Sequence record: JX128259 | DNA: 64,000 nucleotides | Direction: 5' to 3' (one strand) | Source: Escherichia phage ECML-134 | Shown here: positions 1,060 to 37,066 of the stretch, one piece after another | How the letters are laid out: the number at the start of each line of letters is the position of its first letter | Numbering within the stretch: the stretch's first letter is position 1 | Translations under genes and position numbers: made by a program | Notes under the pieces: generated by a model | Seen by the model: the letters and a program-made list of their open reading frames with translations, nothing else | Databases searched by the model: none | Told to the model about the DNA's origin: nothing

Positions 1060-1615
1060 ATTTTTCTAGTAATAAATCACTTTCAAAATTAGGATTTTCC
1101 ACTAATTTATCAAAAAGATCATCAACAATAGTTAAGATATTCTTTTTACTAAGAATACGTTTATTTTCATGCTTCGTTTCAGAATCAACTATAAGAGTAA
1201 AGAAATATTTCTTTCCCTGAAATTTTACAGTAGTATCAATATAAAATAAATTTGACTTTTGTAAATTACGTTTAAACCATGCGTCACTTAAACTATAAAC
1301 ACCGAGATAATCAAAATCGTCGTTTAAATAACAAACTGTCCATTCAGGAGAAATGAAATCAGTAAATTCAACATCAAAATCGCATGTCAATGAATAAATT
1401 GATTCAATACTGTTAATAAGTATTCCAGGACGTATTAAAGACTTTTTACCTCTGGAAAATCTTCCAGAAAGACTTTCATCAGTTTCATATGAAGAACCCC
1501 AATAATAATTACGTCCTTCTGCCATACGTTTAAGAGCATTTAGCAATTGGTCTGGAACATCAACCTGTCTTTGGAACTCTTCAAACATTGAATTGAAATC
1601 ACTTTGCATTTTCAT
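1007..1615 (-). CDS. hypothetical protein
   Basis: 202 aa ORF, no recognisable motif. Confidence 0.55.
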   Translation of the reverse strand: MKMQSDFNSMFEEFQRQVDVPDQLLNALKRMAEGRNYYWGSSYETDESLSGRFSRGKKSLIRPGILINSIESIYSLTCDFDVEFTDFISPEWTVCYLNDDFDYLGVYSLSDAWFKRNLQKSNLFYIDTTVKFQGKKYFFTLIVDSETKHENKRILSKKNILTIVDDLFDKLVENPNFESDLLLEKFVKECREYVKTITIPSK

Positions 1616-1631
1616 TCCTATTTACTCCAAG

Positions 1632-1650
1632 TAATAGGGGCCGAAGCCCC
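1632..1650 (-). terminator. C(UUCG)G-type stable hairpin between genes (weak terminator or RNA stabiliser)
   Basis: minus-strand GGGGC-UUCG-GCCCC directly after stop of 1657..2250; no U-run. Confidence 0.35.
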
Positions 1651-1656
1651 TTATCA

Positions 1657-2250
1657 TTATTTCAGAGAATTAATGTATTCCTGAACATCGGCAGAGGTAG
1701 TTTCAACCCCAGAAATATTACCATTAAAGGTTTCAACTCGAGCAAGAGTATCTTCAATATCAACCTTAGTCAGCGCTGCAATTTCAACTACATCATCGGC
1801 AGTACTAATTCCAAGGGCATTCGCTGCACGAGTTTCACGGATATATTCCAATTTAACTGCAAGTTCTTGGCGAGCATCATCTAACTCAACTACTTTCTTA
1901 GCGATTTCAATTCGCATTTCAGCATAACCATCAGCTTTAGTAGTCAGCTGTTCAGCTGTTCGACGATATAGCAAACCGAGTTTAGCATGCATTGTTACAT
2001 CTTGACCTTCGGAAAGAAGCTTGCGAATTTCACGCTCTTTTGATTCAGCCTGTTTATTCTTTTCAACAATAAGTTCACGAATACGTTTTTCTTCATTAAT
2101 AGATTTAACAGAAGCAGTTTTTAGGTCTTTAATTTTATCAAGCAGTTTTGCTGCTGCGACAGTATACTGTTCTTCAACAGATAGATTTTTAGCCATAGCA
2201 GAACCAAGTTTAGTGCGAATAAACTCAACAATTTTCTTCAGTGTGTTCAT
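1657..2250 (-). CDS. PspA/IM30-like coiled-coil protein (tentative)
   Basis: 197 aa; helical, charged heptad-rich sequence; segments resemble remembered E. coli PspA. Confidence 0.5.
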
Positions 2251-2327
2251 AGTATTTCCTTAGGTTGATTAAGATTTAAAATCCGTGAGAGTATTAGTAT
2301 TATACTCTATCTTCAAGTTATGGGCTC

Positions 2328-2357
2328 ATAATATCTCAATCATGAGCCCGTGTAAAC
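2328..2357 (-). promoter_or_regulatory. sigma70-type early promoter (GTTTACA-17-TATTAT) with spacer inside a palindrome
   Basis: minus-strand -35 at 2351-2357, -10 at 2328-2333; palindrome GGGCTCAT/ATGAGCCC 2322-2349. Confidence 0.5.
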
Positions 2358-2621
2358 TTATTTCATATTATTGAAATATTCTTCTACGATTTCATCGTTA
2401 TCATGGTAAACTTTAGAAGACAGTTTAACATAACCTTCAGCAGTGAACATGTTAATCACAACCTTTACAGTATACCACTGACCGTCTTCATTACCCATTA
2501 CTGCATAGGTTTCAAACATCGGATGGTCAGGACCGATAACTTTAATATCATTCACTGTACGACCAAAATCTTCTGAAACACATTTCATAAAGAAGTTGAA
2601 CAGTTCGCCGTAATTATCCAT
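2358..2621 (-). CDS. hypothetical protein
   Basis: 87 aa from internal ATG preceded by GGAG; track ORF 2358..2675 has an upstream extension. Confidence 0.55.
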   Translation of the reverse strand: MDNYGELFNFFMKCVSEDFGRTVNDIKVIGPDHPMFETYAVMGNEDGQWYTVKVVINMFTAEGYVKLSSKVYHDNDEIVEEYFNNMK

Positions 2622-2665
2622 TTCGTTCTCCAAGTTGTTTTTCTGTATCAGTAGTTGATAGTTGT

Positions 2666-2695
2666 ATAGTACCATGGAAGAACAGGGATGTAAAC
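2666..2695 (-). promoter_or_regulatory. sigma70-type early promoter (GTTTACA-17-TACTAT)
   Basis: minus-strand -35 at 2689-2695, -10 at 2666-2671, upstream of 2358..2621. Confidence 0.5.
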
Positions 2696-2861
2696 AGTTT
2701 TGTGAAAAAATTTTTAAAAAGTTTTGGGGAATTCTAGGGCGGGGAGGGGCAATTAAAGGATAGGATAATATATTATAAAGGGTATAAACTAAATGATGCC
2801 TAGAGAGGTCCAGAAAGGCCTAGATACCAAAAAGCCCTATCATTTAGATAGGGATTTAAAA

Positions 2862-3425
2862 TTATTTACCTAGTTTAGTTATTATAGCTTCTGCAGCAGC
2901 TTTTAGCTTAGATGCAGTGTTAATACGATTTTTAATTTCAGTATACGCATCGCCAAGAACATCAAGGCTATCAGAATAAACACTTACACTATTGCGTTCG
3001 CTATTTGAAATAGAACCTTTAGTTTTACGATCAAAATCGGTGTACACGTCTTGAAGATCGCGGGCTGCCTTCTTTGCATCATCCAATGCATCAAGAGCTT
3101 TATTCAAAGCATTGACATATTTTTTAGTGTCAAACATATTCTTAGAAATTTTAACAGGTACACGTTCAGGAGTAGCTAATGCAGATTTAGGAACCTGAGC
3201 GCCAGATGCCAATTTCTTAGAAATTTTGAAAAATGCTTTATTAAAACTATTTTCTTGGCTCATCGTAAAAGAACTGTTATCGATGTTATACATTTCAATA
3301 GCTTTAGCTTTCCACTTAAGAAAATCGCCGCGGTCTTTTGGGTCCAAGTGGAAGAATACTTTAGTAAGATCTGCTTCAGATGGTAATTTTGCTGCTTCGG
3401 TTAAAAATTCTGCATAGGTTTTCAT
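2862..3425 (-). CDS. internal head protein with capsid targeting sequence (IPIII-like)
   Basis: 187 aa; N-terminus MKTYAEFLTEA matches the T4 internal-protein CTS ending in a gp21 cleavage site (L-x-E). Confidence 0.7.
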   Translation of the reverse strand: MKTYAEFLTEAAKLPSEADLTKVFFHLDPKDRGDFLKWKAKAIEMYNIDNSSFTMSQENSFNKAFFKISKKLASGAQVPKSALATPERVPVKISKNMFDTKKYVNALNKALDALDDAKKAARDLQDVYTDFDRKTKGSISNSERNSVSVYSDSLDVLGDAYTEIKNRINTASKLKAAAEAIITKLGK

Positions 3426-3515
3426 TTAAAATCCTTGAAATAATCTATCGGTTGGTTATTAATTATTTATTACTTTGTTATTATCCGTAACAGCGTTATC
3501 CGAGTGATTCAAACT

Positions 3516-3542
3516 AAAAAGCCCCAACCTTTCGGCTGGGGC
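3516..3542 (-). terminator. intrinsic terminator
   Basis: minus-strand GC-rich hairpin (GCCCCAGCCGAAAGGTTGGGGC) followed by UUUUU; downstream of 3551..4024. Confidence 0.65.
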
Positions 3543-3550
3543 TAAGAATG

Positions 3551-4024
3551 TTATTTGATTTGTTTAGCAGACCAAATGCGGTCTTTAATAATTTTTTGGA
3601 TGTCTTCAACATACTCAAGAGAGTGAGCATGTGGGTTATCTTTGAAACTATAAGCACGAGCTAGCTTTTGACCTTCGGTTTTGATTACTAAAAGCTCTTT
3701 AAGGATAGCTTCATATTTAGCGATAATTCCTTTAACGATATTTTTTTCTTGTGCAGCTTTAGGATCTGCTTTAGGAGCAGGTTTACCCGAAGCCTTTGCA
3801 AAAGCAGCGCCAGTAGCAACTAGACTTTTCCAGGCCATACTAACCGCATTTCCTGTAAATCCTTCTGCTTTCATGTCACGAGCAAATTGGAATCGCGATT
3901 CGTCAGAAGCATCTTTATAAGAATATTTACCCGCTGCAATGGCTGCTTTTGCGACAGCTTGAATTTCGGTGCTAGATGCTTCATTTAACACCGCTTCATT
4001 TAAAAATTGAGTATATGATTTCAT
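3551..4024 (-). CDS. internal head protein with capsid targeting sequence
   Basis: 157 aa; N-terminus MKSYTQFLNEA (CTS-like). Confidence 0.65.
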   Translation of the reverse strand: MKSYTQFLNEAVLNEASSTEIQAVAKAAIAAGKYSYKDASDESRFQFARDMKAEGFTGNAVSMAWKSLVATGAAFAKASGKPAPKADPKAAQEKNIVKGIIAKYEAILKELLVIKTEGQKLARAYSFKDNPHAHSLEYVEDIQKIIKDRIWSAKQIK

Positions 4025-4064
4025 CTTATTTCCTGTTTTAATTCGTGGATTTAATATACTACTA

Positions 4065-4072
4065 TATTTATA
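4065..4072 (-). promoter_or_regulatory. T4-type late promoter core (TATAAATA)
   Basis: plus TATTTATA = minus TATAAATA, about 40 nt upstream of the ATG at 4024. Confidence 0.5.
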
Positions 4073-4074
4073 CC

Positions 4075-4101
4075 AAAAAGCCCCAACCTTTCGGTCGGGG
4101 C
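4075..4101 (-). terminator. intrinsic terminator ending the tRNA/stable-RNA transcription unit
   Basis: near-identical copy of the 3516..3542 hairpin plus U-run, minus strand. Confidence 0.65.
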
Positions 4102-4104
4102 TAA

Positions 4105-4418
4105 GCCTTGCGGCAACCTTGTCGGGGTTCCACCTGCTAAGGCAAGTGTTTGTACGAAACGCCGGGATTCGAACCCGGTTATTAAGTAGTTGACGCTACT
4201 CAATATTTTTAAAAGGCCATATCTCGACCATATCCGAACGTTCCGTCAAAAACGCTACTCGGCTTATGGCAAAGATATTTCCTCGAATCGATAATTCGGT
4301 GCGCCGTTTCTGCTGTGATATAAGGGGGCATTAACAAAACATAAAGATTTATTAATGCCAGTCCTTAAACAGGGAACATCAGTCCGACGACTTGCCGGTA
4401 GCGACCCGGCTTCTTGTC
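4105..4418 (-). ncRNA. putative stable small RNA(s) with tRNA-like T-arm (species 1/2-like)
   Basis: no ORF; sits between tRNA-Arg and the terminator; T-arm-like CCGGG-TTCGAAT-CCCGG (plus 4162-4178); repeated GAGTAGCGT motif; no canonical cloverleaf. Confidence 0.35.
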
Positions 4419-4494
4419 TGGTCGAGGCAGTAGGGATCGAACCTACGACCCAGGACTTAGAAGGTCCTTGCTCTTCCTTCTGAGCTATGCCTCG
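4419..4494 (-). tRNA. tRNA-Arg (anticodon TCT)
   Basis: manual cloverleaf: acceptor CGAGGCA/TGCCTCG, loop CTTCTAA, T-loop TTCGATC, encoded CCA. Confidence 0.8.
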
Positions 4495-4498
4495 TATT

Positions 4499-4573
4499 TG
4501 GCGGACGTGATAGGATTCGAACCTATAACCAATCGCTTAACAGGCGATCGCTCTGCCATTGAGCTACACATCC
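4499..4573 (-). tRNA. tRNA-Asn (anticodon GTT)
   Basis: manual cloverleaf: acceptor GGATGTG/CACGTCC (one G-U), loop CTGTTAA, T-loop TTCGAAT, CCA. Confidence 0.75.
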
Positions 4574-4577
4574 AAAT

Positions 4578-4664
4578 TGGTGGGGAGTGGTGGAGTCGAA
4601 CCACCCGAGTCGCAATGACAATGGATTTACAGTCCACACCGCTACCTCTACGGGATAACTCCCC
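4578..4664 (-). tRNA. tRNA-Tyr (anticodon GTA), long variable arm
   Basis: manual cloverleaf: acceptor GGGGAGT/ACTCCCC, loop CTGTAAA, long variable arm, CCA. Confidence 0.7.
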
Positions 4665-4673
4665 AAATTAATT

Positions 4674-4748
4674 TGGTGGCCCTGGGTGGAATTGAACCAC
4701 CATCTGGCGATTATGAGTCGCTTGCTTGAACCTTCCAGCTACAGGGCC
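4674..4748 (-). tRNA. tRNA with CAT anticodon (Ile2-type or Met)
   Basis: manual cloverleaf: acceptor GGCCCTG/CAGGGCC, loop CTCATAA, CCA. Confidence 0.75.
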
Positions 4749-4749
4749 T

Positions 4750-4825
4750 TGGTGCTGATTGACGGAATCGAACCGCCGACCTTCTCATTACAAGTGAGTT
4801 GCTCTACCTACTGAGCTAAATCAGC
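4750..4825 (-). tRNA. tRNA-Thr (anticodon TGT)
   Basis: manual cloverleaf: acceptor GCTGATT/AATCAGC, loop CTTGTAA, T-loop TTCGATT, CCA. Confidence 0.8.
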
Positions 4826-4830
4826 AAAAC

Positions 4831-4920
4831 TGGCGGAGGCGATAGGATTTGAACCTATGAGTCGCCGGAGCGACTTCCGGTTTTCAAGACCGGTGCATTA
4901 AACCACTCTGCCACGCCTCC
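4831..4920 (-). tRNA. tRNA-Ser (anticodon TGA), long variable arm
   Basis: manual cloverleaf: acceptor GGAGGCG/CGCCTCC, loop CTTGAAA, long variable arm, CCA. Confidence 0.8.
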
Positions 4921-4926
4921 AAATAT

Positions 4927-5577
4927 TTATATATTGTTAATTTGATTTAGAATTCTTTTTGCTTGAGTATGACTTACGCCAATATGCTTAGCATATTTAG
5001 ATAATTCACCACGTTTAGAAAAATCATATAATTTAGAAATTTCTATTCTTCTTTTTCTTTCATCCGCAGAAACTTTTGCTTCGTTTGCTTTTGCTATTTT
5101 ACGTTTAGCTTCTTGAGAATGAGTTTTACCAGCAAAGCCATTCTTCATTAATCCATTTGAAGACCATCCTTTTAATTTTCCGTTAGAATGTGCCTTTTTA
5201 ACACCCAATGAAATTAATTCGCGTTGCTGGTCTGTCATAGGATAATTATTTATATGATCCCATCCACCTTCACCGCCAAGTTTTAAATTATACACATCTG
5301 GTCTATTTAAAAACTCTTCTGTAACAATATTTTTCTCGGCTTTAAGCATAGATTCTTTATCATCAAAATACTCTAATATTTCTTTAGAAAAATTTTCTAT
5401 GCCATACTTATCTTGGGCTCTTTTTAATAATTTACCAGAACCCATATATCCATCATCTAAATTTTCGGTAGAATGCACACCAATATAAATTTTATTATTA
5501 ATTTTATTTGTTATTTTATAAAGATAAAAATGCATATCAGTCCCTAATAAAGAACTGAGCGTCTCACGACGAGTCAT
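4927..5577 (-). CDS. segB: GIY-YIG homing endonuclease (SegB-like) inside the tRNA cluster
   Basis: 216 aa; N-terminal GIY-YIG module (YLYKITNKINNKIYIGVHS, NxxxGG); position between tRNA sub-clusters. Confidence 0.8.
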   Translation of the reverse strand: MTRRETLSSLLGTDMHFYLYKITNKINNKIYIGVHSTENLDDGYMGSGKLLKRAQDKYGIENFSKEILEYFDDKESMLKAEKNIVTEEFLNRPDVYNLKLGGEGGWDHINNYPMTDQQRELISLGVKKAHSNGKLKGWSSNGLMKNGFAGKTHSQEAKRKIAKANEAKVSADERKRRIEISKLYDFSKRGELSKYAKHIGVSHTQAKRILNQINNI

Positions 5578-5581
5578 AAAT

Positions 5582-5655
<74 letters not shown>

Positions 5656-31512: not shown

Positions 31513-33492
31513 ATGACTTTATTATCTCCGGGCATTGAGCTCAAAGAAACTACGGTTCAAAGCACCGTGGTTAATAACTCTACTGGTACAGCAGCTTTGG
31601 CCGGTAAATTCCAGTGGGGTCCTGCTTTTCAGATTAAACAGGTTACAAATGAAGTAGATTTAGTTAATACTTTTGGTCAACCAACCGCTGAAACTGCTGA
31701 CTATTTTATGTCTGCGATGAATTTCTTGCAGTACGGAAATGACTTACGAGTAGTTCGTGCTGTTGATAGAGATACCGCTAAAAACTCATCACCAATTGCT
31801 GGTAATATTGAATACACAATTTCTACCCCAGGTAGTAACTACGCGGTTGGAGATAAAATCACGGTCAAATATGTTTCAGACGATATTGAAACTGAAGGTA
31901 AAATTACTGAAGTAGACGCAGATGGAAAAATTAAGAAAATTAATATTCCTACTGCAAAAATTATCGCTAAAGCGAAAGAAGTAGGTGAATACCCGGAATT
32001 AGGTTCTAACTGGACTGCGGAAATTTCTTCGTCTTCCTCTGGTTTAGCTGCAGTAATAACCCTTGGAAAAATTATTACTGATTCTGGTATTTTATTGGCT
32101 GAAATTGAAAATGCTGAAGCTGCTATGACAGCGGTTGACTTTCAAGCAAATCTCGAAAAATACGGAATTCCAGGAGTAGTAGCTCTTTATCCAGGCGAAT
32201 TAGGCGATAAAATTGAAATTGAAATCGTATCTAAAGCTGACTATGCAAAAGGAGCTTCTGCATTACTCCCAATTTATCCAGGTGGTGGTACTCGTGCATC
32301 TACTGCCAAAGCAGTGTTTGGATATGGACCGCAAACTGATTCACAGTATGCTATTATAGTTCGTCGTAATGATGCTATTGTTCAAAGCGTTGTTCTTTCA
32401 ACTAAGCGTGGTGAAAAAGATATTTACGATAGTAACATCTATATCGATGACTTTTTCGCAAAAGGTGGTTCAGAATATATTTTTGCAACTGCACAAAACT
32501 GGCCAGAAGGCTTCTCTGGAATTTTAACTCTGTCTGGTGGATTATCATCAAATGCTGAAGTAACAGCAGGAGATTTGATGGAAGCTTGGGACTTTTTTGC
32601 TGACCGTGAATCTGTTGACGTTCAACTGTTTATTGCGGGTTCTTGTGCCGGTGAATCTTTAGAAACAGCATCTACTGTCCAAAAACATGTTGTTTCAATC
32701 GGGGATGCTCGTCAAGATTGCTTAGTATTGTGTTCTCCTCCGCGCGAAACTGTAGTTGGAATTCCTGTAACTCGTGCTGTTGATAACTTAGTCAATTGGA
32801 GAACTGCAGCAGGTTCATACACTGATAATAATTTTAATATCAGTTCAACCTATGCAGCAATCGACGGCAACTACAAATATCAGTATGACAAATATAATGA
32901 TGTGAATCGTTGGGTTCCATTAGCAGCTGATATTGCTGGTTTATGCGCAAGAACTGATAACGTATCTCAGACTTGGATGTCTCCAGCTGGTTATAATCGT
33001 GGCCAAATTTTGAACGTTATTAAACTTGCTATTGAAACTCGCCAGGCTCAGCGTGACCGTTTATACCAAGAAGCTATCAACCCAGTAACTGGTACAGGTG
33101 GTGATGGTTACGTATTGTATGGTGATAAAACAGCTACTTCTGTTCCTTCTCCATTTGATCGTATTAACGTTCGTCGTCTGTTTAATATGTTGAAAACGAA
33201 TATCGGACGTAGTTCAAAATATCGTTTGTTCGAATTAAACAACGCGTTTACTCGTTCATCATTCCGCACAGAAACTGCCCAATACTTACAGGGAATTAAA
33301 GCTCTCGGTGGAATTTATGAATATCGTGTAGTTTGCGATACAACAAATAACACTCCGTCAGTAATTGATAGAAATGAGTTTGTTGCAACATTCTACATCC
33401 AACCGGCTCGTAGTATAAATTATATCCAACTTAATTTCGTCGCAACTGCTACTGGTGCAGATTTTGATGAGTTAACTGGTCTTGCAGGTTAA
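31513..33492 (+). CDS. 18: gp18 contractile tail sheath protein
   Basis: 659 aa; T4 order and size. Confidence 0.9.
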   Translation: MTLLSPGIELKETTVQSTVVNNSTGTAALAGKFQWGPAFQIKQVTNEVDLVNTFGQPTAETADYFMSAMNFLQYGNDLRVVRAVDRDTAKNSSPIAGNIEYTISTPGSNYAVGDKITVKYVSDDIETEGKITEVDADGKIKKINIPTAKIIAKAKEVGEYPELGSNWTAEISSSSSGLAAVITLGKIITDSGILLAEIENAEAAMTAVDFQANLEKYGIPGVVALYPGELGDKIEIEIVSKADYAKGASALLPIYPGGGTRASTAKAVFGYGPQTDSQYAIIVRRNDAIVQSVVLSTKRGEKDIYDSNIYIDDFFAKGGSEYIFATAQNWPEGFSGILTLSGGLSSNAEVTAGDLMEAWDFFADRESVDVQLFIAGSCAGESLETASTVQKHVVSIGDARQDCLVLCSPPRETVVGIPVTRAVDNLVNWRTAAGSYTDNNFNISSTYAAIDGNYKYQYDKYNDVNRWVPLAADIAGLCARTDNVSQTWMSPAGYNRGQILNVIKLAIETRQAQRDRLYQEAINPVTGTGGDGYVLYGDKTATSVPSPFDRINVRRLFNMLKTNIGRSSKYRLFELNNAFTRSSFRTETAQYLQGIKALGGIYEYRVVCDTTNNTPSVIDRNEFVATFYIQPARSINYIQLNFVATATGADFDELTGLAG

Positions 33493-33499
33493 TTGATAA

Positions 33500-33513
33500 G
33501 GGGCTTCGGCCCC
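33500..33513 (+). other. C(UUCG)G stable hairpin after gene 18
   Basis: GGGGC-TTCG-GCCCC. Confidence 0.45.
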
Positions 33514-33530
33514 TATTCTCGAGGAATCAA

Positions 33531-34136
33531 GTGATTATTTCTAAGTTTGTTACAATAAAACCAAGAAATCATTCAAAAATGTGGTCGACAATTCTGGGAT
33601 ATAAAGTATCATATCATGATACAGTATCTGTTCCAATAGAATTAATGCCAAAGAATAGTAATAAAATAGTTGACGCTAAATGTGATTTGTGTGGTATTAA
33701 ATTTAGTAGAAGCATTCAGCTTTTAAATAGAACACCAACGCATGCATGTAGAAAATGTAGCATTAAACAAGTTGCTATTAAAAATTCGGAAGTTCAATCT
33801 GGAATAAGTAGACCATGGCAAAGAGGTGATAAACATCCTCGATGGACTGGTAAAAGAAAAGAGTTTGCATTATATGCTAGTAGAGTTCATTCTATAACTA
33901 AGTCAGCTAAAATAAGAAAAATCTGGTCAAAATGGCCAAATGCTGATAAAATAGGAGTGTGTGGCGTAGAAGGTGCTTACCAACTCGATCATAAAGTATC
34001 TATCAAATATGGATTTGATAATTTAATTCCGCCGGAAATTATAGCAAGCGTAAAAAATTTAGAAATAATCACTTGGGAATCTAACCGAGAAAAGTCAAAA
34101 AGAAATAGCGTAGATCTTTGGGATTTACTAGAATGA
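33531..34136 (+). CDS. HNH-family homing endonuclease (Mob-like) inserted between genes 18 and 19
   Basis: 201 aa; possible GTG start with GAGG upstream; Cys4 pattern CDLC...CRKC; HNH-like motif LDHKVSIKYGFDNL...N...WESNREK. Confidence 0.6.
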   Translation: MIISKFVTIKPRNHSKMWSTILGYKVSYHDTVSVPIELMPKNSNKIVDAKCDLCGIKFSRSIQLLNRTPTHACRKCSIKQVAIKNSEVQSGISRPWQRGDKHPRWTGKRKEFALYASRVHSITKSAKIRKIWSKWPNADKIGVCGVEGAYQLDHKVSIKYGFDNLIPPEIIASVKNLEIITWESNREKSKRNSVDLWDLLE

Positions 34137-34161
34137 TTCTAAAGGCCTGTTTCGGCAGGCC

Positions 34162-34169
34162 ATATAAAT
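34162..34169 (+). promoter_or_regulatory. late promoter TATAAATA (first of two copies upstream of gene 19)
   Basis: exact TATAAATA immediately after the HNH ORF. Confidence 0.45.
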
Positions 34170-34220
34170 ACACTATATCCTTAATTCTTTAATTCTATAT
34201 GCCCTAGGTTAAACATAGGG

Positions 34221-34228
34221 ATATAAAT
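34221..34228 (+). promoter_or_regulatory. late promoter TATAAATA for gene 19
   Basis: exact TATAAATA 16 nt upstream of GAGG and the ATG at 34244. Confidence 0.6.
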
Positions 34229-34243
34229 ACTACAGAGGCTAAT

Positions 34244-34735
34244 ATGTTTGTAGATGATGTAACACGAGCGTTTGAATCTGGTGATTTTGCTCGACCTAAC
34301 TTATTCCAAGTAGAAATTTCTTATCTTGGACAAAATTTTACGTTTCAATGTAAAGCCACTGCTTTACCAGCTGGTATTGTAGAAAAAATTCCAGTCGGAT
34401 TTATGAACCGTAAAATTAACGTAGCAGGCGATCGTACATTCGATGACTGGACTATTACAGTAATGAATGATGAGGCGCATGATGCACGCCAGAAGTTTGT
34501 TGACTGGCAAAGCATTGCTGCGGGGCAAGGAAACGAAATTACTGGTGGAAAACCTGCAGAGTATAAAAAGAGTGCTATTGTACGCCAATATGCTCGTGAC
34601 GCTAAAACTGTAACAAAAGAAGTCGAAATTAAAGGCCTGTGGCCTACTAACGTGGGTGAACTTCAGTTAGATTGGGATTCAAACAATGAAATCCAAACCT
34701 TTGAAGTAACTCTCGCTCTCGATTATTGGGAATAA
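34244..34735 (+). CDS. 19: gp19 tail tube protein
   Basis: 163 aa; T4 order and size. Confidence 0.9.
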   Translation: MFVDDVTRAFESGDFARPNLFQVEISYLGQNFTFQCKATALPAGIVEKIPVGFMNRKINVAGDRTFDDWTITVMNDEAHDARQKFVDWQSIAAGQGNEITGGKPAEYKKSAIVRQYARDAKTVTKEVEIKGLWPTNVGELQLDWDSNNEIQTFEVTLALDYWE

Positions 34736-34767: not shown

Positions 34768-36392
<1,625 letters not shown>

Positions 36393-36393
<1 letters not shown>

Positions 36394-36641
36394 TGGAAGG
36401 TTTAATTGAAGCTATTAAATCAAACGACCTCGTAGCCGCTCGTAAATTATTTGCTGAAGCCATGGCTGCAAGAACGATTGATTTAATTAAAGAAGAAAAA
36501 ATCGCTATCGCTCGTAATTTCTTAATCGAAGGTGAAGAACCTGAAGACGAGGATGATGACGAAGACGAAGATAGTGATGATAAAGACGACAAAAAAGACA
36601 AAGACTCTGACGAAGATGACGAAGACGAGGATGATGAATAA
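36393..36641 (+). CDS. 67: gp67 prohead core protein (acidic C-terminus)
   Basis: 82 aa; D/E-rich tail; T4 order. Confidence 0.8.
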
Positions 36642-37066
36642 TGCTTCTGATCCCTGAAACTCATGAATTAGTTCTCGAGAATGTCGAAGCACTTATTCCT
36701 GAAGCACAGGGTCGCTTTGACGAATTGTCTTCTGCTTTAGATAAAGACGATATAAATACAATTGTCGAGAATATGCTTGATGATGAAACTGATTTAGCAG
36801 TTGCATTAGCTTCTATTAATGAAAATATGCCGTTAAATGAATTCATTGTTAAGCACGTTTCAGCTCGTGGTGAAATTACACGTACTAAAGACCGCAAGAC
36901 GCGTGAACGTAATGCATTTCAAACCACCGGGCTGTCTAAAGCAAAACGTAGACAAATTGCTCGCAAAGCTACCAAAACGAAGATTGCCAATCCAGCAGGT
37001 CAATCTCGTGCTCAGCGTAAGCGTAAAAAAGCTCTTAAACGCCGTAAAGCATTAGGATTAAGCTAA
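36641..37066 (+). CDS. 68: gp68 prohead core protein
   Basis: 141 aa; T4 order. Confidence 0.8.

Follow-up and report, generated by a model that had tools for sequence, protein, structure and literature searches.

The MobA to MobE endonucleases of phage T4 are encoded by freestanding, intergenic genes of T-even genomes, have an HNH-type fold and occur sporadically among close relatives. In these proteins an N-terminal HNH domain precedes a C-terminal DNA-binding region (PMC2988022). Here we analyse a gene of comparable habit in Escherichia phage ECML-134 (sequence record JX128259), of which a stretch of 64,000 nucleotides (nt), hereafter the window, was examined. The source is a Tequatrovirus, a T4-like coliphage, and the 1.8 kb around the element discussed below are 98–99% identical to phages NBG2, PP01 and T6. 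Between gene 18 (tail sheath) and gene 19 (tail tube) lies an open reading frame (ORF) of 201 amino acids (aa). We consider this 18–19 ORF to be probably a freestanding HNH (beta-beta-alpha-metal) homing endonuclease gene, part of a large unnamed phage family. It is best read in this way from its fold, its invariant catalytic residues, its sporadic distribution and its phylogenetic incongruence, and on the same grounds we agree with an initial annotation of the window, which had seen a Cys4 pattern and an HNH-like motif in this ORF and had proposed an HNH-type endonuclease of mobile kind.

The ORF is like the Mob genes in being intergenic, freestanding, sporadic among close relatives and HNH-type in fold, and the expectation for a Mob-like enzyme is that it nicks or cuts a conserved gene close by and spreads through recombination repair. 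It is unlike them in that its domain order is inverted, with an N-terminal zinc finger and a C-terminal nuclease, in that Pfam HNH models do not detect it, in its location at the 18–19 locus and in its absence from T4. Because of the inverted order and the lack of a sequence-level HNH match we do not count it as a member of the Mob family, although by analogy it probably works as Mob enzymes do. Among T-even proteins, I-TevIII (the HNH enzyme of the RB3 nrdB intron) and I-TevI (with its zinc-finger linker) likewise combine a nuclease with a Cys4 zinc finger (PMC2988022). Both, unlike the ORF, are intron-encoded, their zinc fingers are placed and used differently, and neither gives a sequence match. 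The HNH nicking endonucleases Gme (4h9d), that of phage GVE2 (5h0o) and SciA of phage T5 differ in being single-domain proteins of about 90–120 aa, with 7–18% identity to the ORF.

The D-H ... N ... N motif of the ORF, in which the last metal ligand is Asn and not His, resembles that of I-HmuI and of Cas9 HNH domains, and its N-to-N spacing of nine residues presumably matches that of N854 and N863 in SpCas9. The ORF differs from I-HmuI and Cas9 in a 22-residue insert that places two short helices between its His and Asn strands. Sequence similarity to them is undetectable, and the ORF is neither intron-encoded nor RNA-guided. Other inserted endonuclease genes interrupt another gene: in phage Aeh1, mobE splits nrdA, a case of genes in pieces. 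The Aeh1 mobE endonuclease appears in a figure of PMC2988022. A relative of the nuclease module of the ORF splits rnlA in Acinetobacter phage 133, whereas the ORF of the window is intergenic and splits nothing. No description of the 18–19 ORF was found in the open-access literature searched. In Petrov et al. (2010), T6 and T2 are each credited with a single 'other HNH', an entry that cannot be equated with the 18–19 ORF because the T2 site is empty.

The 18–19 spacer measures 751 nt in the window (from the end of gp18 at 33492 to the start of gp19 at 34244) and 116 nt in T4 and in T2, which bears out the short T4 spacer stated in the initial annotation. The junction comparison across relatives that had been suggested there delimits the insertion. 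Alignments of the window with T4, T6 and RB9 place its boundaries as follows. After the gp18 stop codon and one common T, T4 has the seven nucleotides ACGGTGC, and the window has 642 nt with a hairpin (hairpin 1), a ribosome-binding site and the ORF. On the right, the boundary lies within the stop codon of the ORF, between TG and A, and from position 34136 (ATTCTAAAGGCC...) to the gene 19 ATG the window has 108 nt identical to the insert-free spacer of T4. The empty Tequatrovirus spacers examined, 16 distinct ones, were without exception 116 nt long: those of T4 and T2, of ten metagenomic or IMG/VR loci (one duplicate pair counted once), and of SA21RB, IME537, SG1, F1, RB68 and PTE-Eco15. Where the sequence was printed, the empty junction read TAA-TACGGTGC-ATTCTAAAGG each time, and no remnant of the ORF was present in the empty spacers examined. 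The ORF is an optional insertion that T4 and T2 do without, so that the outcome named in the initial annotation as refuting, one ORF present at this position in every relative including T4, did not arise.

Hairpin 2 and both TATAAATA late-promoter boxes lie in the 108 nt common to the window and T4. The initial annotation had treated two UUCG-type hairpins as brackets of a cassette that had brought or duplicated late-promoter sequence. Both hairpins do fold, at about −13 kcal/mol with z-scores of about −2.9, and both boxes are exact, each sitting one base to the right of the position first given. The bracketing is right for hairpin 1, which is present in both ORF alleles, missing from the empty spacers and therefore cassette-borne. 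It is wrong for hairpin 2, which is identical in T4, T2 and the other empty spacers printed and has only its loop in common with hairpin 1. In the insert-free phage SA21RB, both boxes were annotated by the depositors as T4-type late promoters. As hairpin 2 and both boxes are identical in the empty T4 spacer, they were not brought or duplicated by the cassette, and duplication of a late promoter or of hairpin 2 was rejected as an explanation. Hairpin 2 and the two boxes are native gene-19 signals, and the cassette has added nothing beyond hairpin 1, the ribosome-binding site and the ORF, with hairpin 1 now following gene 18 in place of hairpin 2. For annotation this means that the two late promoters and the second hairpin should be assigned to gene 19 and not to the insert.

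Hairpin 1 is probably a 3' stabiliser or a leaky terminator for gene 18 mRNA. It has no U-tract after it and a terminator scan did not report it, so the ORF would probably be expressed by late read-through from gene 18. Sigma-70 promoter matches in the region were at chance level (7 against 6.9 expected). We make no claim for a mobE-like hairpin that would sequester the ribosome-binding site and start codon: the helix at 33521–33541 is weak (z −1.34) and one of its pairs is broken in T6.

The ORF is the only one in the 18–19 spacer, with no competing ORF of at least 40 aa when both strands were checked. Its GTG start is supported by the N-terminus MIISK, which is conserved across the family. 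Among six A-type copies, variable codons comprised 13 synonymous and 2 non-synonymous cases, and the protein is therefore under purifying selection. With 46 close homologues, 6928 profile matches and this 13:2 synonymous excess, the ORF is not a chance reading frame.

About 116 of some 520 Tequatrovirus records carry an ORF in the 18–19 spacer and the others are empty, the carrier counts being partly estimated from evenly spaced listings. The window-type allele (at least 95% aa identity) accounts for about 68 phage records, and a second allele of about 50% identity for about 50 further records. As expected of a freestanding homing endonuclease gene, the ORF is intergenic, has its own translation signals and faces a clean empty site in close relatives. 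Beyond the genus, the gp18–gp19 interval holds homologues of 29–66% identity in Dhakavirus (UP19, Bp7), Jiaodavirus (Nispero) and Gelderlandvirus (S16). Further ones occupy the same place in Winklervirus (X20), Hadassahvirus (Acinetobacter phage Melin), Ceceduovirus (Aeromonas phage AS-zj) and Citrobacter phage Ci1, and in Sinorhizobium phage phiM12 a homologue directly follows gp18. The homologue of Salmonella phage S16 is annotated only as a 106-aa 'gp100.1' (2801–3121). The deposited start is probably too far downstream, since in S16 the whole 201-aa query gives a single uninterrupted tblastn alignment beginning at 2501.

This constancy of position raises the possibility that the tail module has long had a resident accessory gene here, for a nuclease or DNA-binding protein with a function in the phage, which was inherited vertically in place since the ancestor of the T4-like phages, repeatedly lost and not self-mobilising. 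In favour of such a gene are the position after gp18 in phages as distant as those of Aeromonas, Acinetobacter and Sinorhizobium, the purifying selection on the ORF, and the 231 of 237 tblastn matches that cover at least 80% of the query. We nevertheless consider it unlikely, given how poorly the history of the ORF follows that of its neighbours. Across nine phages (36 pairs), identity of the ORF was uncorrelated with identity of gp18 (Spearman rho 0.05, p 0.77). The window and RB9 are 99% identical in gp18 and 53% in the ORF, and UP19 and Bp7 are 96% and 29% identical, respectively, so that near-identical phages carry very different alleles, or none. Conversely, the values are 72% and 66% for the window and UP19, and 77% and 63% for RB9 and S16. 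Such incongruence with the flanking genes is a hallmark of freestanding homing endonuclease genes. The empty spacers, with one identical junction and no remnant, and the low guanine-plus-cytosine content of the ORF (0.32 against 0.39–0.40 in the flanks) also speak against a resident gene.

The points of insertion differ as well. A native spacer segment of 144 nt lies downstream of the ORF in UP19 (3120–3263) and upstream of it in the congeneric Bp7 (2311–2453), so the unrelated alleles of these two phages entered the spacer at different points. Locus L023 carries an ORF, and its congeners L022 and L024, 94–95% identical in gp19–gp20, have a 213-nt spacer without it. A further relative is found outside the tail genes: in Acinetobacter phage 133, rnlA (RNA ligase 1; region 1570–3647) is annotated as rnlA-A and rnlA-B, split by a 273-aa ORF whose C-terminus matches the nuclease module of the window ORF. 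The depositors remarked on 'some similarity to ORF19.1 of T6' for this ORF, and its interruption of rnlA is likewise at odds with a resident tail gene. The comparisons show three ORF lineages scattered across genera, which have moved horizontally into the same spacer.

Phage Bp7 shows other irregularities nearby. A second inserted ORF, between gp19 and gp20 (3769–4350), is annotated 'HNH endonuclease' and has only weak Pfam matches, to SegE GIY-YIG and NUMOD3; it is probably a Seg-like enzyme. The portal gene of Bp7 is annotated in two pieces (4408–5630).

Sequence searches gave little for the protein itself. The search against HNH and Mob profiles called for by the initial annotation returned no HNH hit, an outcome that had been named there as refuting: Pfam contained no HNH family at E ≤ 1 for the 201-aa protein, NCBIfam gave zero matches, and Pfam searches with each of 42 aligned homologues (35–68% identical to the window protein) yielded one match, to HNH_4 at E 0.078. 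Searches of the PDB with phmmer and hmmsearch returned only zinc-finger proteins and no HNH protein. PHROGs assigned the protein to phrog_5104, of 'unknown function'. DUF4379 (PF14311, 'probable treble-clef zinc finger') matched weakly in 17 of the 42 members, with a best E of 8e-4; the window protein itself scored 14.2 bits, below the cut-off of 24.5. The family profile also resembles the zinc-finger protein mS66.

The family is large. Besides the 46 close homologues, of which all with a source name are labelled 'hypothetical', a profile search of 1.84 billion representatives retrieved 6928 cluster representatives at E ≤ 1e-3 and 113 at E ≤ 1e-30. In many of these matches the C-terminal module stands behind other N-termini, some with DUF7487. 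Records of the ORF or of its homologues in other genera, including SYGD1, WL-3, T6 AP018814 and Roth78, carry labels as varied as 'holin', 'putative head morphogenesis protein', 'type II restriction endonuclease' and 'homing endonuclease', which look like propagated mis-annotations.

Conservation within the 42-sequence alignment is concentrated in two places. In the N-terminal domain, C51, C54 and C73 are invariant and C76 nearly so, in the pattern CxxC-x18-CxxC. In the C-terminal domain, Q151, D153, H154, S157, G161, N176, L177, W182, N185, R186 and K188 are invariant, among them the catalytic residues expected of the HNH superfamily (D153, H154, N176 and N185). An alignment-based AlphaFold model (mean predicted local distance difference test score, pLDDT, 90.4) was used for the fold, and a single-sequence model (pLDDT 30.7) was set aside. 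In the former, a strand at 150–154 ends in D-H, a strand at 177–181 starts at N176-L177, and a helix at 182–188 holds N185; the model has the beta-hairpin and following alpha-helix that would form the metal site, and it has fold similarity to solved HNH enzymes. The top four Foldseek matches in the PDB were Cas9 HNH domains, all weak (E 0.16–0.6), and the fold comparison also matched the T5 nicking endonuclease SciA, SspE-CTD, BrxU and McrA. Among predicted viral structures in BFVD, significant matches were mostly uncharacterised proteins, some of them labelled HNH or homing endonuclease.

The HNH call rests on fold and invariant residues, because the curated sequence profiles (Pfam HNH and HNH_2 to HNH_5, and NCBIfam) give no significant match. 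From the model, we conclude that the C-terminal domain is a divergent HNH nuclease of the H-N-N type, with predicted activity, and that the N-terminal domain is a treble-clef-like Cys4 zinc finger, the presumed DNA-recognition module. A protein with these two domains might instead have lost its catalytic activity and survive as a relic that binds specific DNA or RNA sequences in a regulatory role, perhaps in late expression of genes 18 and 19. The zinc-finger domain is conserved, the ORF stands between a hairpin and the gene-19 promoters, and I-TevI offers the precedent of an endonuclease that doubles as a repressor (PMC2988022). Yet the D-H/N/N set, invariant across 42 diverged homologues, is unexpected for a dead enzyme, and about 80% of close relatives, with an identical promoter region, dispense with the gene, which makes a regulatory relic very improbable.

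The two Tequatrovirus alleles form a mosaic of swapped domains. Allele B, carried by RB9 (2501–3118), pSs-1 and G2540-3, is about 95% identical in DNA to the window allele at its two ends, namely in hairpin 1, the ribosome-binding site and codons one to five on one side and in the nuclease-coding final ~220 nt on the other. Between them, ~370 nt that code for the zinc-finger domain (aa ~7–128) cannot be aligned as DNA, and protein identity between the alleles is there about 25–30%. With ends this similar and a middle this different, the presumed DNA-recognition domain has been exchanged and the catalytic domain kept.

A second peculiarity of the locus lies in the 3' end of gene 18, in a hypervariable and almost purely synonymous patch of 11 codons (R S I N Y I Q/T L N F V) with at least three haplotypes, among them a T4 type, a T6 type and an RB9/T2 type. 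Nucleotide diversity in 50-nt windows, computed for 14 Tequatrovirus loci sampled without bias, was 0.176 in the patch; the median was 0.040, and the second-highest window reached 0.082. An earlier diversity scan had used genomes picked by junction identity and was thereby biased; the peak stayed in the unbiased sample. To both sides of the locus, sequence is unusually uniform over 300 nt. Within the patch, T4 differs from the window at about ten synonymous sites and in one amino acid. The patch is a candidate recognition, cleavage or co-conversion zone, which it fits but does not prove; target-site or co-conversion zones are known for SegF, SegG and MobE (PMC2988022). Two single-nucleotide polymorphisms, 33435 T/C and 33441 C/A/T, had seemed diagnostic in nine genomes and were rejected once IME537, SG1 and T2 were added. 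The patch also contains a TATAAATT box, found in carrier-type haplotypes and replaced by AGCATTAACTAC in the T4-type haplotype. This box could drive the ORF, and it is an alternative reason for an association between haplotype and insert.

If the ORF is a homing endonuclease gene, late gene 18 transcripts would pass hairpin 1, and the protein would be translated from its own GAGGA and GTG. The Cys4 zinc-finger domain may then bind a sequence at or near the insert-free 18–19 junction of a co-infecting relative, and the C-terminal domain would nick or cut it; D153/H154 would serve as the general base, N176 would be the structural Asn and N185 would bind the metal. T4-type recombination repair would copy hairpin 1, the ribosome-binding site and the ORF into the break, along with some of the gene 18 flank. 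The carrier could be protected by its junction being split by the insert, or by synonymous changes in the gene 18 patch.

Several points weigh against this reading. No cleavage or inheritance data for any family member were found in the open-access literature searched, and an old resident gene might also account for a position that stays constant among very distant phages. The T4-type patch haplotype occurs in eight of the 16 empty genomes and in none of the nine carriers, but this association (Fisher p 0.022) is uncorrected for relatedness. Moreover, the empty genomes IME537, SG1 and T2 have carrier-type haplotypes, and no flanking polymorphism co-segregates perfectly with the insert.

The same nuclease evidence would also suit an interference or exclusion nuclease, which damages the tail-gene region of competitors so that marker exclusion benefits the carrier and homing is a by-product. 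The two readings overlap. Freestanding endonucleases of T4 do cause localised marker exclusion (PMC2988022), an intron endonuclease is reported to mediate competition between co-infecting jumbo phages (PMC11620839), and the insert adjoins essential, highly expressed structural genes. The sequence offers nothing to separate such a role from plain homing, and the cassette is minimal, with no cargo gene; we think exclusion improbable as the primary function and retain a homing endonuclease as the preferred interpretation.

A more far-reaching scenario joins these observations into an arms race at the 18–19 junction. The patch, nearly saturated with synonymous changes, would be the recognition or cleavage site, and the alleles with ~95% identical nucleases would have swapped zinc fingers to retarget patch variants. 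With at least 6900 cluster representatives, the family would then rank as a major class of phage homing endonucleases that has been overlooked, faithful over the long term to the sheath–tube junction and driving tail-gene conversion in T4-like phages. As a combined proposal this is speculative and, on balance, rather doubtful.

Table 1. Features of the 18–19 region and neighbouring genes in the ECML-134 window
Feature	Position	Strand	Remarks
Gene 17, large terminase	29649–31481		
Gene 18, tail sheath	31513–33492	+	Upstream flank
Hypervariable, almost purely synonymous patch	33393–33442	+	3' end of gene 18; ~50–100 nt upstream of insert
TATAAATT box	33414–33421	+	In gene 18; one base off late-promoter consensus; ~110 nt upstream of ORF
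Insert-specific segment, 642 nt	33494–34135	+	Replaces 7 nt ACGGTGC of empty T4/T2-type spacer
Hairpin 1, GGGGC-TTCG-GCCCC	33500–33513	+	−13.0 kcal/mol, z −2.95; 7 nt after gp18 stop
Shine-Dalgarno-like GAGGA	33521–33525	+	5 nt 5' of GTG start; read from sequence
201-aa ORF, T6 ORF19.1 / T6ORF160 type	33531–34136	+	GTG start; annotated 'hypothetical protein'
N-terminal domain, aa 1 to ~90	33531–33800	+	Predicted treble-clef-type Cys4 zinc finger; C51, C54, C73, C76
HNH-like beta-beta-alpha core, aa 143–190	33957–34100	+	Predicted
D153-H154	33987–33992	+	
N176	34056–34058	+	
N185	34083–34085	+	
Hairpin 2, GGCCTG(T)-TTCG-(G)CAGGCC	34144–34161	+	−12.8 kcal/mol, z −2.94; native spacer
First TATAAATA late-promoter box, exact	34163–34170	+	Native; identical in T4
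Second TATAAATA late-promoter box, exact	34222–34229	+	Native; 14 nt before gene 19 ATG
Gene 19, tail tube	34244–34735	+	Downstream flank
Gene 20, portal			Downstream of gene 19

Further downstream, the mechanical ORF list starts the portal gene at a TTG (34807), and the start equivalent to that of T4 is the ATG at 34819, which leaves a gp19–gp20 spacer of 83 nt, the same as in T4. The place of T4 gene 67 (prohead core) is occupied by an ORF at 36393–36641 with an acidic, D/E-rich tail. A Ser-rich antisense ORF of 106 aa (36344–36664) mirrors this tail and is almost certainly an artefact of repeat composition.

The 18–19 ORF is an uncharacterised gene of a known kind of element, and a homing endonuclease in a T-even phage is unsurprising to a specialist. 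Its interest lies in the size of the unannotated family, in the fidelity to the sheath–tube junction, in the domain-swapped alleles and in its testability in T6, T2 and T4. If the enzyme is active, work modelled on T4 has missed a homing endonuclease of the classic phage T6, because T4 and T2 lack the ORF. The natural allele pair, with the same nuclease and different zinc fingers, would be useful for studies of specificity change. Activity would likewise put a name to thousands of related phage proteins now called 'hypothetical', for which present profile libraries give either no annotation or a wrong one.

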